Assembly: GCA_043812495.1 (NCBI GenBank)
Contig: JBDRMG010000064.1
Span: 2,799-66,798 of the forward strand
Length of the DNA stretch: 64,000 bases
Reading direction: 5' to 3'
Source of the DNA: Candidatus Omnitrophota bacterium
GTDB taxonomy: Bacteria; Omnitrophota; Gorgyraeia; Zapsychrales; JBDRMG01
Shown: positions 24,223 through 31,406 of the stretch, piece after piece
How the letters are laid out: each line of letters starts with the position of its first letter
Position numbering within the stretch: position 1 is the stretch's first letter
The notes under the pieces: model-generated
Seen by the model: the letters and a program-made list of their open reading frames with translations, nothing else
What the model was told of the DNA's origin: nothing
The model's database searches: none
Translations under genes and position numbers: made by a program

Positions 24223-24696
24223 TTATTCAAGTTGCGTTGCGGCTTCTTTCGAGGCTTTAAATCCACGATAAACGAACGAGAAGGAGATAAGAAAAACGCA
24301 TAAATAAACGGCGGCCAAAAGAAAAAACGGTTTCTTTCTCTCCACAATGAAGCCACCCATCACATGCGCAAAGGCCAATAAAGGCAAACTAAAAAGCATC
24401 ATTCCGATATGGGCAACAAACATCAGATAAGGCATGTTCGAGAGAAGATCTCCTGAGGGCTTTTGGAATATCGTCGGTATCTGCCCCATTAAGAAAAGAA
24501 CTAACAGATACAAGGGCGAAGACACTGCAATCACATTCCACCATCGCATTTTTGTTGAGTCTGATTTCAAGGATTTTCGTGTTGCCGTGAGAATCCAGCC
24601 GATCCCAAAGGCAATCAAGAGGGCAAAAAGAATTCTTGAGACGAAAAATGCGATATAGGTCGAATAGTCTTGCATGACTTTCTTAATCAGTTTCAC
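24223..24696 (-). CDS. Membrane protein of unknown function (4 TM)
   Basis: 157 aa, last gene of the radical SAM operon string. Confidence 0.5.
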   Translation of the reverse strand: MKLIKKVMQDYSTYIAFFVSRILFALLIAFGIGWILTATRKSLKSDSTKMRWWNVIAVSSPLYLLVLFLMGQIPTIFQKPSGDLLSNMPYLMFVAHIGMMLFSLPLLAFAHVMGGFIVERKKPFFLLAAVYLCVFLISFSFVYRGFKASKEAATQLE

Positions 24697-24765
24697 GAAA
24701 TTGGGGGCCGAAGAGGCTCGGCCCCCAATTCAAGAAGTAATATCTTTCTTATGCTTTGTCCCTTC

Positions 24766-26850
24766 TTATTTCTTGTGAATAATCTTCTTAACCAATTTGA
24801 GAACAAATCCCAGAATTACGATAAAAATGATAATTCGTAGAATTTTCCCGATGTGCTTAAAGATACGCGTATAACTGGCCGTTAGATAGGGGCTTTCTTT
24901 TTCTGTCACCAGTAATTTGGAGAAACGATACTGGCTTCCCTTTTGAGGAATATCGATTTTGATGGGTAAAACACCGACGACCTTCCCTCCGGATTGCTTT
25001 TCTGAATATGTCATTTGCTGCACATTGCTAATAGAAAACTGTTCTCCAATATCATCGGCCGCAGATCTTAAACGACCCTGCACATGACTTAACGGCCTCC
25101 AAGCTGTTGAATCCTTGGTTAACTTGACGTCCCCTCCAAAATTAAAATACTTATAATCAACAGGAAAATAGACAGACCAATAGAGTTGGCTTGCGGGAAT
25201 ATCCGTTTGAGGAAGCCCCATCTTAAGAGAGCCAAAATATTTCATTCTGGATCCCTGATCCAGATAGACGATCTCAACGGGAAATTGGGTCAAGCTTTGC
25301 CCTTGAAGCTGGGATTTCTCTAGGGGAATCAGAATACTACCGTTTTTATCTTTGGCCGGTTTCACAGGCTTGCCGGCGACAAATGTGCTCCACAAAGAGG
25401 CTCCTTTGGGCAAAACCAAATGCAAGAATTGCTTCACATTATTGCGCACTTGATACGTCGCCTTGGTCAAAACTTTCCCTTCTTCGGTATAAAGAGTAAC
25501 ATAATTGGCCGAATCAATAGCCGCAACGAGAACCGGTAATTCCTCGTGCTTGGTGACATCGATGGTGATCGCAAAGGGATGATTAAGATATTTGAAGGCC
25601 AAAAGAATGGGATTGGAGGATTGGCTCCAAATCGACGAAGGAAGCTCTTTGACGTCAATGGCGGTGACTCTTTCGAGTTTATTAACGGCTAGCTCGACAT
25701 TGGTCTTGGCCGCAACACCAACATATCCATTTTCCCGTTCGACTCCAAGGGCTTTGACGGACGGGATATCGGCCACGACGGACCCCTCCCCGATGTTTCG
25801 CTCATAGAGAATATCCAGAATATAATTGCCTTTGATGCCATAATTCAAATACACATCCAAATATTGAACACCTTTGTCGACAGAGACCTTCCAATCGCGT
25901 AAATCCCGGCCACTCACGTCCAGAAGGGTGACATCTTCAGGAATCGCGATGCGCAGATTCGATATCTCGGATTGCAAAATGGAATACTTCAGCTGAGCTT
26001 GATTGCGGACAAGCCCCTCTCCGATAGTCGAGTAGGTTGTTGTTTCCAAATAAACCTTCGGCTCCAGTTTTACTTGTTTAATTTCTTCTTTGGGCAGTTC
26101 TTTGGTCCAGCGTGTAGTGATGCTGTTTGTGTTGGGCATCACAGCCCAAGCTAATGTTTTTTCTTTTTCTTTATTCACTTCCACTTTAATCGCCGGTTCA
26201 ATGAAAATTTCAACACCTGTTTCGGGCATGATAAATTCATATTGAGAAATCGGCGCCGACATTACTTCAAACGAAAAATTGCCGGGACCGCCTTCGCGCT
26301 CACGCGTGGCTTTGATCAGAAATTCAATGTTCAAAGTATAGCGACCTGGCCGGTCAATCATTAAGTAATATTTGCCTCCCTGCATAATCACAAAAGCCGT
26401 GCTGCGATTGATGCTCACGTCAATCAAGCCGACGCTGCTGCGCACCAAAGGAAGCTGTGTCCAGCCTTTGCTAAAAACTTCAAAAATGACTTTGCCGTTA
26501 ACCGTGACGACATTTTCTTCGAGCTCCGCTTTATAGTCTGTTTGGTAAATCGCGTAAGACGAAAGCACGGATGTAGGAATACCCTCTCCTTCTTCTGTTT
26601 TACCGCCAACACGTTCATTTAAAACTTGAGGACCCCGAGGAATTGCCATTTCCTGATCACCACCATAGAGCGTTTGTTGATTTCCTTCGTATCCGCTTTG
26701 ATCAAGATTAAATTGGATGTTGCTGCCTTTTTGCAATCTTCCCTGGATCTTGTCTTTTAGGCCTCCGGCTAAAATGTTTTGAGGCAAAATAAAGACATAC
26801 AATAACGCTGCAGTCGCCAAAGCTATTGTTTTCATAAAATTGTTGTTCAT
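24766..26850 (-). CDS. Large secreted protein with C-terminal TM anchor, unknown function
   Basis: 694 aa. N-terminal signal peptide (MKTIALATAALLYVFILPQNILAGG) and a C-terminal hydrophobic helix plus basic tail (ILRIIIFIVILGFVLKLVKKIIHKK). Confidence 0.55.
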   Translation of the reverse strand: MNNNFMKTIALATAALLYVFILPQNILAGGLKDKIQGRLQKGSNIQFNLDQSGYEGNQQTLYGGDQEMAIPRGPQVLNERVGGKTEEGEGIPTSVLSSYAIYQTDYKAELEENVVTVNGKVIFEVFSKGWTQLPLVRSSVGLIDVSINRSTAFVIMQGGKYYLMIDRPGRYTLNIEFLIKATREREGGPGNFSFEVMSAPISQYEFIMPETGVEIFIEPAIKVEVNKEKEKTLAWAVMPNTNSITTRWTKELPKEEIKQVKLEPKVYLETTTYSTIGEGLVRNQAQLKYSILQSEISNLRIAIPEDVTLLDVSGRDLRDWKVSVDKGVQYLDVYLNYGIKGNYILDILYERNIGEGSVVADIPSVKALGVERENGYVGVAAKTNVELAVNKLERVTAIDVKELPSSIWSQSSNPILLAFKYLNHPFAITIDVTKHEELPVLVAAIDSANYVTLYTEEGKVLTKATYQVRNNVKQFLHLVLPKGASLWSTFVAGKPVKPAKDKNGSILIPLEKSQLQGQSLTQFPVEIVYLDQGSRMKYFGSLKMGLPQTDIPASQLYWSVYFPVDYKYFNFGGDVKLTKDSTAWRPLSHVQGRLRSAADDIGEQFSISNVQQMTYSEKQSGGKVVGVLPIKIDIPQKGSQYRFSKLLVTEKESPYLTASYTRIFKHIGKILRIIIFIVILGFVLKLVKKIIHKK

Positions 26851-29757: not shown

Positions 29758-29759
29758 GG

Positions 29760-31406
29760 TTAATGACCGCTGCTAACGCAGGCGCCATGACAAGCCCCAT
29801 GGCAGGCTGAATGACACGCGGAATGACACGCCGAATGACAGGCTGAATGACAGGCATCATGGCACACATTTTGCATAAACGGACCTTCATAACATACCGA
29901 TGTGTTGCGAAACGTCGAGAAATTGTCCTTGAGGTTAGGGATGTTTCCTTCAACCGTTTTTCCGACATCCTGACTTTTCCTGTAATCATATCGATCGGCG
30001 TGGGTTCGCCCATAATAGTGATGATGGTATCCGCCCCAATAAAACGCGTCCTCATCGTTTTTCTTGTAAAGATCGCCCATCTGTTTTTTGTAATATTTCT
30101 TAGTTGCCTCGAGGTCGCAATCCCAAGTCTTCTGCTCAAGACCCGAAGCAATGGTTTTAAACAACAAATTGACTGGATTTTCTTGGATACGTCCGTCGGC
30201 TTCAATGGCACTATAAAGAATGCTCTCGTAAGAGTCATTGCTTCCCATAACGCCGGCAACGCGTTCAACGCGCAAAGGGTCCTCGCTTAGTATTTTAATA
30301 ATCCCCCGGCGTTCCATATTTTGAACAATCAATCCCATGAGAACCGAAAGAGGAATATCCAGAAGAAGGCCCGCTTCAATGGCGTTAAGAGTTTTGCAGA
30401 TTTTCCCTTTCTGCCGGAAGGATCCCACTTGAATCTTGGGAGGAACCCACTCATCCCCTTGCCACTGAATCTTGGAAATCCCGTCCTGGGCAATGAGCAT
30501 TGACTGATGCTTGCGCGTCATCACAAAAAGAGGGAAAAACCCCAAGAATAGTGCGCCAAAGAAAACAATGATAGCGATCGTGACATAATCAAACGGCATT
30601 TCGGCCAAAACACTGCCCGGAAAAAATCGGTTCAAAAGGTAGGATTCCTTCGCTTTTTTTAAATCGCTTTTTTGCCATGGCGCTTTTCCGGCAATGGTGG
30701 AAAGCAGAAAATAAGAAGCATCCGCATAGGTTTGGATCTGAAAATGATAGCGGCTATTAAGATTATTGCGATGGAATCTGACCGTCAGAATATTTTCTCC
30801 TTGAGCATTCTTCACGGAAGGATAATCAATCAGGTAGCGGTCATTGACATACTTTTCCGTCATGAATTTACTCTTTTCCAAATCTTCCTTGGAAACAGAT
30901 TCCGAAGAGAGGGAAATCGGATAATGAACCGTGACTGTTTCGTGCTCAAGGGAATTGTTCCATTGAACCGGCGCCCAGTTAAAAACCGCCAACCGCCCGT
31001 GAGGGCTGTCGGTCAGGGTCACCTGGCCGCTTTGCTGCAAATCCGTTTGATAGCGAAAGAAATAGGTCAGCTCACCGTCTTGAAAGGAGCGGCCTTGGGA
31101 GAGGATAATATCGTATTTCTTATTTGAGAGTTTCTTGATATCGAGAGCGTAGCGGTTACCGTTTTGGTCGAGGGCATAGGCATTCTGATCGTCAAAGCGC
31201 GGTCGCTCTACAAATCCTTCAAAATAAAAACCGTGAAGATTCGCATTCTGGCATACCCAGCGAACAGAATAGGAAATTTGCGCCTTGCCGTCTTTGTCCA
31301 AAACAACATCCGTTTCGACCCAGCGCAGTTTAAATCCATCGGCCCAAGCATGCGAAGGGAATACAAGGCAAAAAAACAATGCGAAGAAAACAAATATTCT
31401 TTTCAT
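29760..31406 (-). CDS. DUF2207-like membrane protein with C-terminal Cys/His repeat tail (ACHS)n
   Basis: Architecture, in order: signal peptide ([22 protein letters not shown]), an ectodomain of about 270 aa, a TM helix ([23 protein letters not shown]), a cytoplasmic domain, and the tail [36 protein letters not shown]. Stop is 3 nt before the radical SAM start. Confidence 0.6.
   Translation of the reverse strand: [548 protein letters not shown]
29775..29860. repeat. In-frame 12-nt tandem repeat (GAATGACA[CG]G[CG]N), about 6 units, encoding the ACHS tail
   Basis: Seen directly: gccatgacaagcc ccatggcaggct gaatgacacgcg gaatgacacgcc gaatgacaggct gaatgacaggca. Confidence 0.8.

Follow-up and report, generated by a model that had tools for sequence, protein, structure and literature searches.

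A widespread three-gene cassette pairing a Cys/His-repeat-tailed membrane protein with a radical SAM/SPASM enzyme: a putative protein-maturation system in Candidatus Omnitrophota and other phyla

Introduction

A 64,000-nucleotide (nt) stretch of DNA from Candidatus Omnitrophota, referred to as a whole as the window, carries on its minus strand, at 24223-31406, a string of six genes, here designated A to F in order of transcription. The first three genes of this string form a unit that is conserved across phyla, comprising a membrane protein that ends in a strict Cys/His repeat (A), a radical SAM/SPASM enzyme with an N-terminal RRE (B) and a further membrane protein (C). On balance, it is probable that A, B and C constitute a self-contained protein-maturation cassette working at the cytoplasmic face of the membrane, with the tail of A as the target of B. 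To our knowledge, nearly all RRE-dependent radical SAM/SPASM enzymes described so far produce small secreted peptides; the cassette differs in being a strict three-gene unit whose enzyme is apparently aimed at the tail of a full-size membrane protein. The literature that could be searched yielded no description of the cassette, of its tail motif or of a link between DUF2207 and radical SAM proteins, and no curated family covering the A-B-C system was found. We rate the system as a so far undescribed version of RRE-dependent radical SAM maturation. The three genes are as follows.

29760-31406 (-): gene A, 548 amino acids (aa), bitopic membrane protein with a Cys/His repeat tail
28429-29757 (-): gene B, 442 aa, radical SAM/SPASM enzyme with an N-terminal RRE
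27467-28432 (-): gene C, 321 aa, membrane protein

The conserved unit is A-B-C

Related loci (95) were compared, and a tblastn gene census was made over the 85 of them retrieved with A. Gene A was present in 85/85, B in 83/85 and C in 82/85 loci, and the order A-B-C, on one strand, was kept in every testable locus. The two loci in which B was missed comprised one contig end and one scaffold gap, and all census misses of B or C were likewise explained by contig ends (e.g. L013 and L035) or by the scaffold gap of L084, where a true loss of B and C was considered and rejected on account of the 100-N gap there. The same picture was obtained from the side of the enzyme. Starting from B, five independent contexts were retrieved, and in each of them B is directly preceded by an A-like gene that carries the same tail and is overlapped or abutted downstream by a C-like gene. 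The B gene always adjoins the gene of the Cys/His-tailed protein; homologues of B, at 57-73% identity, were found in metagenome-assembled genomes of Omnitrophota, Elusimicrobia, Auribacterota and Firestonebacteria and in Spirochaetes-labelled ones.

A scan with the A alignment, using one genome per GTDB species, identified relatives of A in at least 561 species from more than 12 phyla, a spread of the cassette comparable to that of many housekeeping systems. The phyla include Omnitrophota, Elusimicrobiota, Armatimonadota, Hydrogenedentota, Acidobacteriota/Aminicenantes, WOR-3 and Planctomycetota, as well as Verrucomicrobiota, Lentisphaerota, Sumerlaeota, Nitrospirota-labelled genomes, Auribacterota and Firmicutes, and a cultured carrier of the cassette is Acetivibrio mesophilus N2K1 (NZ_RLII01000029.1), where A-B-C span about 7974-12024 of locus L076. 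Clustering of all open reading frames (ORFs) of at least 70 aa across the related loci revealed no other shared gene beyond A-B-C and no protease or exporter conserved with the cassette.

An earlier, sequence-only reading of this DNA had treated all six genes as one operon and one envelope or maturation system. The sequence features on which it relied are all present: there are indeed six minus-strand ORFs, and the junctions are as tight as claimed, with a 2-nt spacer between the A stop and the B start (29760/29757; TAAccATG) and 4-nt overlaps between B and C (28429/28432) and between C and D (27467/27470), where the D start lies over the C stop. The starts of A (31406) and C (28432) are backed by homologue alignments and by the NCBI gene model, and proteins B and C show 100% identity to those of a Candidatus Omnitrophota metagenome-assembled genome at NCBI. 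The remaining three genes, separated by gaps of 26 nt (D-E) and 69 nt (E-F), are listed below.

26877-27470 (-): gene D, 197 aa, soluble protein
24766-26850 (-): gene E, 694 aa, secreted, C-terminally anchored protein
24223-24696 (-): gene F, 157 aa

That one-strand packing, with D overlapping C, is what speaks for a single six-gene system, as does the failure to find a strong terminator within the string. Against it, D, E and F, like the other neighbours of the window, were detected in 0/85 related loci by tblastn. The neighbourhood of the string is thus conserved in part: A-B-C are co-located across phyla, contrary to the concern that homologues might never occur together in other genomes, whereas D, E and F never accompany them. 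D is nearly an orphan, with five relatives among 1.84 billion representative proteins, and lies outside the conserved cassette as a lineage-specific add-on at most. Homologues of E (54-63% identity; see L087 and L088) occur on eight metagenome contigs, none of them near A, B, C, D or F, and are flanked by genes that recur in several contigs and that look, as judged from N-terminal sequences, like housekeeping genes. No match to E was obtained in PDB sequences, and none of C, D, E and F matched a Pfam or NCBIfam family; E represents a family of stand-alone surface proteins that is as yet uncharacterised. Because D, E and F are missing from the 85 loci, E stands alone elsewhere and D is nearly without relatives, the six-gene string is a place where a widespread three-gene cassette happens to lie next to three lineage-specific genes, and it is scarcely credible that A to F act as one system.

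Some neighbours of the cassette recur in single lineages. In 24 loci of one distant clade (WOR-3, Armatimonadota, Planctomycetota and others), whose A tails begin CHSACYVHTACHD, a soluble protein of 129 aa, termed Z, is encoded directly upstream of A (for example at L063 4918-5307, and also in L053, L068 and L084; MNLPYGEIK…FSTADFSIASV…AQADLLRARIE). No Pfam family matched Z, and the window does not contain it; it may be a fourth component in its clade. In approximately 9-11 Elusimicrobia loci (e.g. L002 12473-14824), genes for NifU and a class V, NifS-like aminotransferase directly follow C, with an Rrf2 regulator and a ferredoxin further along; this adjacency could reflect lineage synteny or hint at an Fe-S connection. 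A B12-binding radical SAM gene was considered as a functional partner and set aside, as it was found in only five loci and its copy in the window lies approximately 8 kb away from where the string ends, on the margin of the examined region. PADLOC returned generic viperin-type radical SAM matches only, and hence no defence-system signal.

A nearly invariant Cys-His tail

The tail of A consists of C-H-x-A units and is encoded by a 12-nt tandem repeat of 5.5 copies, as determined with Tandem Repeats Finder (TRF). The Ala, Ser and Cys codons vary synonymously between units, which indicates that the repeat is maintained as protein sequence. Among 77 complete A proteins, 561/561 repeat units read C-H-x-A, which places the tail, with its His and Ala fixed throughout, among the most rigidly conserved short repeats seen in the analysis; the variable position x is Ser (73%), Asp (17%) or Gly (8%) in these proteins. 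Eight to nine Cys stand in register in 73/77 A proteins, and metagenome fragments of the tail contain between three and ten. All tails close with CVS(S/G)G followed by zero to one residue and then His or Arg, one of them carrying an ARIW extension. With a median identity of 91% to the window protein, the tail is the best-conserved part of A, ahead of the ectodomain (44%), the cytoplasmic domain (40%), the membrane helix (27%) and the linker (16%). As it is nearly unchanged in every related locus, the tail is not a chance feature. It is preceded by a conserved aromatic segment of clade-specific sequence, reading F-x-x-F-R...C-Y-E-G-x-F in the clade of the window and S-D-A-C-H-S-A-C-Y-V-H-T in another clade.

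The sequence-only reading had seen no separate precursor peptide and had named two candidate substrates for the enzyme, namely this tail or an unannotated Cys-rich peptide of under 60 aa. A short-ORF scan of 24100-31800 agreed with the first observation and removed the second candidate, since it gave no conserved Cys-rich short ORF except frame shadows within A, B and C; a hidden short precursor was accordingly rejected. The overlapping CX3CH units were also considered as c-type heme sites. This is very unlikely, given that the tail is predicted to be cytoplasmic, that no linked heme lyase was present and that the last Cys is followed by Val.

Domains and topology of protein A

The AlphaFold2 (AF2) model of A has a mean predicted local distance difference test (pLDDT) score of 80.5. 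The features of the protein, as placed in the window, are listed below.

31341-31406 (-): signal peptide of A, from the AF2 model
30717-31337 (-): ectodomain, residues 24-230, extracytoplasmic beta-sandwich, confident in the AF2 model
30474-30587 (-): membrane helix, residues 274-311, AF2 helix and hydrophobic run read from the sequence
29889-30449 (-): cytoplasmic region, residues 320-506, AF2 secondary structure and conserved alignment columns
29763-29864 (-): tail, residues 515-548, (C-H-x-A)7 followed by CVSSGH, from DNA and TRF

In fold comparisons of the AF2 models against PDB libraries, the ectodomain appears as a beta-sandwich resembling ribophorin and the M1 N-domain. As to the label DUF2207-like, given to A by the sequence-only reading, there is a weak similarity to the DUF2207 N-domain (PF09972), and some homologues of A carry a precomputed PF09972 match; the window protein scores 16.1 bits and homologues score 19.8-21.2 bits, below the Pfam threshold of 24.4. 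No NCBIfam model matched A. A recent Pfam family, PF27846, is assigned by precomputed annotation to distant homologues of A (P0133 and P0136-P0145), so that the protein family of A may already be catalogued.

A basic TRKH motif follows the membrane helix on its C-terminal side, from which, by the positive-inside rule, the C-terminal part of A is predicted to be cytoplasmic. This part comprises a helical portion with an invariant WDCDLEAT motif, then a Tyr/Trp/His/Arg-rich linker, with helices extending to residue 506. Residues 342-382 are modelled as a helix-helix-strand-strand unit, which by its secondary-structure pattern alone may be winged-helix-like. The cytoplasmic domain has no match in PDB sequences or Pfam. 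The linker (residues approximately 450-505; window 29889-30057) is of low complexity, and its composition is kept across phyla while its sequence is not.

B is an RRE-containing radical SAM/SPASM enzyme of its own family

The domain matches bear out the earlier description of B as an enzyme combining an RRE, a radical SAM core and a SPASM domain, positioned as follows.

29458-29700 (-): RRE, residues approximately 20-100, Pfam and NCBIfam PqqD models, family level
28927-29406 (-): radical SAM core, residues 118-277, PF04055
29371-29394 (-): CxxxCxxC motif (CNLECQFC), residues 122-129, from the sequence
28492-28749 (-): SPASM domain, residues 337-422, PF13186

The radical SAM model PF04055 matches B with 92.7 bits (cut-off 29.5), and C122, C126 and C129 are invariant in 74/74 homologues. 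The SPASM model PF13186 matches with 40.6 bits (cut-off 21.5), and the Cys at 337, 351, 369, 408, 411, 417 and 421 are invariant in the same homologues; enzymes of the SPASM subfamily have about seven Cys that hold two auxiliary 4Fe-4S clusters. The N-terminal segment of approximately 110 residues is, as far as sequence models can tell, a PqqD-like RRE. This assignment is significant at the family level: the N-termini of 17 B homologues were matched by Pfam PqqD in 10 cases (best E 3.1e-6), by the NCBIfam lasso PqqD chaperone model in 11 and by the NCBIfam PQQ PqqD model in 10, and the N-terminal segment of window B reached E 7.4e-4 in the NCBIfam PqqD scan. The PqqD match expected from the first 110 residues was in this way recovered in Pfam from homologues, the window protein itself staying under the threshold. 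A profile search of the B N-terminus against PDB sequences returned spurious HIV-protease matches and weak matches to the lasso RREs of TfuB1 (E 0.45) and TbiB1 (E 1.7).

Among proteins of solved structure, B is closest to PqqE (E 4e-22), GDGT-MAS (2e-18), SuiB (5e-17) and SkfB (9e-15), with weaker matches to CteB (E 2.8e-7) and to the anaerobic sulfatase-maturating enzyme anSME (E 3e-7, partial, residues 119-208). The relatives of B are peptide maturases (PqqE, SuiB and SkfB) and not anSME, a grouping with which had been raised as damaging to the maturation hypothesis; B also has an RRE, and the tail of A is without the C/S-x-P/A-x-R motif, neither of which fits an anSME system. None of the curated NCBIfam maturase families was reached by B (NirJ, AhbC/D, PqqE, MftC, GeoRSP, ACGX, StsB, PapB, WgkB, Hxs and Scm). 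The best score was that of NirJ2, at 147.5 bits against a cut-off of 500, with AhbD at about 146, followed by PqqE (127.7/381), StsB (102/625), ACGX (92.8/400) and PapB (74.3/340). Since no curated NCBIfam cut-off was reached, B is, on sequence criteria, a family of its own. Its relatives include formers of both C-C and C-S bonds, so that its chemistry is not readable from similarity.

Partner C combines membrane hairpins with a domain predicted to be cytoplasmic

C had been described as a polytopic membrane protein. Its AF2 model (pLDDT 82.3) supports this with four membrane helices and adds a soluble domain which that description had missed.

27974-28366 (-): helical hairpins of C, residues 23-60 and 108-153, AF2 model, four membrane helices
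27491-27946 (-): cytoplasmic alpha/beta domain, residues 163-314, AF2 model

A basic loop between the hairpins carries an invariant VTPDE motif, and according to the positive-inside rule all soluble parts of C would be cytoplasmic. In the fold comparison, the soluble domain resembles type III secretion chaperones, a fold of peptide-binding type. Type III class I chaperones and YbjN have an alpha-beta-beta-beta-alpha-beta-beta-alpha fold and come with a partner effector and a secretion apparatus. The sequence identity of C to these proteins is approximately 10%, and C differs from them in being fused to four membrane helices and in having no secretion system nearby.

Proposed maturation of the tail and competing explanations

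From the models and the positive-inside rule, the tail of A, the enzyme B and the soluble domain of C would share the cytoplasmic side of the membrane, and the envelope system suggested by the sequence-only reading is not indicated. We suggest that the tail is the substrate of B on the intact protein, because B has an RRE, no precursor, protease or exporter accompanies the cassette, and the tail is its most constrained element. In the proposed mechanism, A would be anchored by its single helix with the ectodomain facing outward and the C-terminal 230 residues, including eight to nine C-H-x-A units, in the cytoplasm. The RRE of the cytoplasmic enzyme B would bind the conserved aromatic stretch that immediately precedes the repeats, after which the radical SAM/SPASM core would modify the C-H-x-A units one after another. 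Most likely, an intramolecular crosslink would form from Cys, whether as a thioether to a nearby residue, for instance the invariant Ala, or as a C-C or C-S link with His. C may keep the unfolded linker and tail accessible and hold B at the membrane. The modified tail would remain on A as a rigid or a metal- or redox-active module, with no peptide released. As to the chemistry, thioether formation is a guess, and so is the assignment of the invariant Ala or His as the crosslink partner of Cys, with the alternative that both residues shape a later metal site.

A further-reaching version of this proposal, which we put forward tentatively and regard as possible though doubtful, is that the array of approximately eight Cys-His units is converted into a crosslinked ladder or into a Cys/His-derived metal or redox cofactor, and that it serves as a housekeeping membrane module in the more than 12, mostly uncultivated anaerobic phyla, through a chemistry without described precedent (e.g. 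radical lanthionine-like Cys-Ala rings or Cys-His links).

Several observations weigh against a maturation role. The tail has a pLDDT below 50 in the AF2 model of A, and a Cys/His tail could coordinate metal in unmodified form. The PqqD match of window B lies below the Pfam threshold (16.2-17.8 versus 23.4 bits; E 0.013, residues 35-82). The best curated scores of B are to tetrapyrrole enzymes (NirJ2 and AhbD), and its best match of solved structure is PqqE, not a thioether former. The co-location of A, B and C would fit equally with a complex of the three that has a different target.

In the main rival explanation, the tail escapes modification and binds metal (Fe-S, Zn, Ni or Cu) or senses metal or redox state, the substrate of B is a different one, such as a tetrapyrrole, a lipid or some other cofactor, and A and C provide the enzyme with no more than a membrane scaffold or regulator. 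Eight Cys and seven to eight His within 34 residues are a typical metal-ligand composition, and the tetrapyrrole enzymes that head the curated matches are joined by GDGT-MAS, a lipid C-C bond former, as the second-best solved match; the NifU and NifS genes directly downstream of C in 9-11 Elusimicrobia loci would also be in keeping with such a role. This neighbourhood is, however, limited to one lineage, a PqqD-type RRE is not needed by tetrapyrrole or lipid radical SAM enzymes, and the curated-family scores are far under their cut-offs, e.g. 147 versus 500 bits. Moreover, Ala at +3 and the four-residue register are fixed in every one of the 561 units, which exceeds the constraint normally seen on metal-binding tails rich in His or Cys. 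We consider this explanation unlikely, although it must be taken seriously.

A classical ribosomally synthesised and post-translationally modified peptide (RiPP) system, in which B would crosslink the tail as a core peptide that is then cleaved from the remainder of A, an oversized leader, and exported as a natural product, is a good deal less probable. An RRE, a radical SAM core and a SPASM domain encoded near a C-terminal Cys-rich repeat are the standard layout of sactipeptide and ranthipeptide clusters, and B stands beside just such a repeat in A; repeat-containing cores are known as well, for example freyrasin with its CxxxD repeats. Other features of a classical RiPP cluster are missing. 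Conserved short ORFs are absent, the only conserved fourth gene is Z, which is confined to one clade, and neither a protease nor an exporter is conserved with the cassette. The core would be near-identical across phyla (91%), although RiPP cores are normally the most variable part of their precursors, a membrane protein of 500 residues, including a well-folded and conserved ectodomain, would have to serve as the leader, and the tail is predicted to be cytoplasmic. Modification of the tail on the intact, membrane-bound protein is the reading we prefer.

Relation to known systems

The cassette appears closest, in architecture and logic, to the sactipeptide/ranthipeptide and ACGX/CXXX systems and, in acting on a protein, to QhpD/QhpC, and it stays below the membership cut-offs of all of them. 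CteB-SCIFF, PapB-freyrasin, SkfB and AlbA share with it the combination of RRE, radical SAM and SPASM domains and a substrate encoded next to the enzyme. Sactipeptide and ranthipeptide substrates have a regular C-x3 Cys spacing, also seen in the tail of A, and their units are modified one by one. In contrast to these systems, the putative substrate here is the C-terminal tail of a 550-residue membrane protein and not a short peptide, the cassette comes without a protease or exporter, and the core is nearly invariant across phyla; in addition, B falls far under the StsB and PapB cut-offs, and CteB is a distant match. ACGX-repeat and CXXX-repeat radical SAM target systems were reportedly defined in silico by Haft (TIGR04340 and partners). 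They consist of four-residue repeats with Ala-Cys beside a radical SAM/SPASM enzyme. B scores well below the ACGX maturase cut-off, A matches no NCBIfam model, the repeats here are carried by a large membrane protein, and the cassette adds the partner C.

In the QhpD/QhpC and anSME/sulfatase systems, the target of the radical SAM/SPASM enzyme is a protein that goes on functioning after modification, with no released peptide, as proposed here for A. QhpC is a small periplasmic subunit, a context which the A tail lacks, and anSME has no RRE and targets C/S-x-P/A-x-R. PqqE is the best solved-structure match of B, whose N-terminus matches PqqD models, but PqqE makes a Glu-Tyr C-C bond in a peptide of 20-30 residues, PqqD is usually a separate protein, and B remains under the PqqE cut-off (128 versus 381 bits).

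A shares with DUF2207 proteins an N-terminal secreted beta-sandwich, a membrane anchor and a low-complexity C-terminal tail, the Pfam similarity being weak and sub-threshold. The usual partner of DUF2207 proteins is LemA (PMC12631010), and the DUF2207 papers found deal only with this pairing and with a stress phenotype. A differs in that its partner is a radical SAM enzyme, not LemA, and in that its tail is a strict Cys-His repeat. If solved, the cassette could reveal a new post-translational modification or cofactor, would open the large class of DUF2207-like proteins to functional study for the first time, and would supply a marker for phyla about which little is known, among them Omnitrophota, Elusimicrobiota, WOR-3 and Hydrogenedentota.

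Other features around the gene string

Directly upstream of A lies a small ORF (31575-31781, minus strand) with a lipoprotein-like signal (…LLLCFTQSGC…), which was not conserved in related loci. A terminator-like hairpin followed by a T-run, at 31586-31604, overlaps its last codons. The position of this hairpin and T-run at the end of the upstream ORF suggests that the A-B-C transcript starts within the 31407-31575 gap. On the other side of the string, an Rfam match to the cspA thermoregulator was obtained at 22129-22487 (-), scoring 78.8 bits against a gathering score of 78; it covers the leader and coding region of a gene for an 80-aa cold-shock protein (22187-22429).

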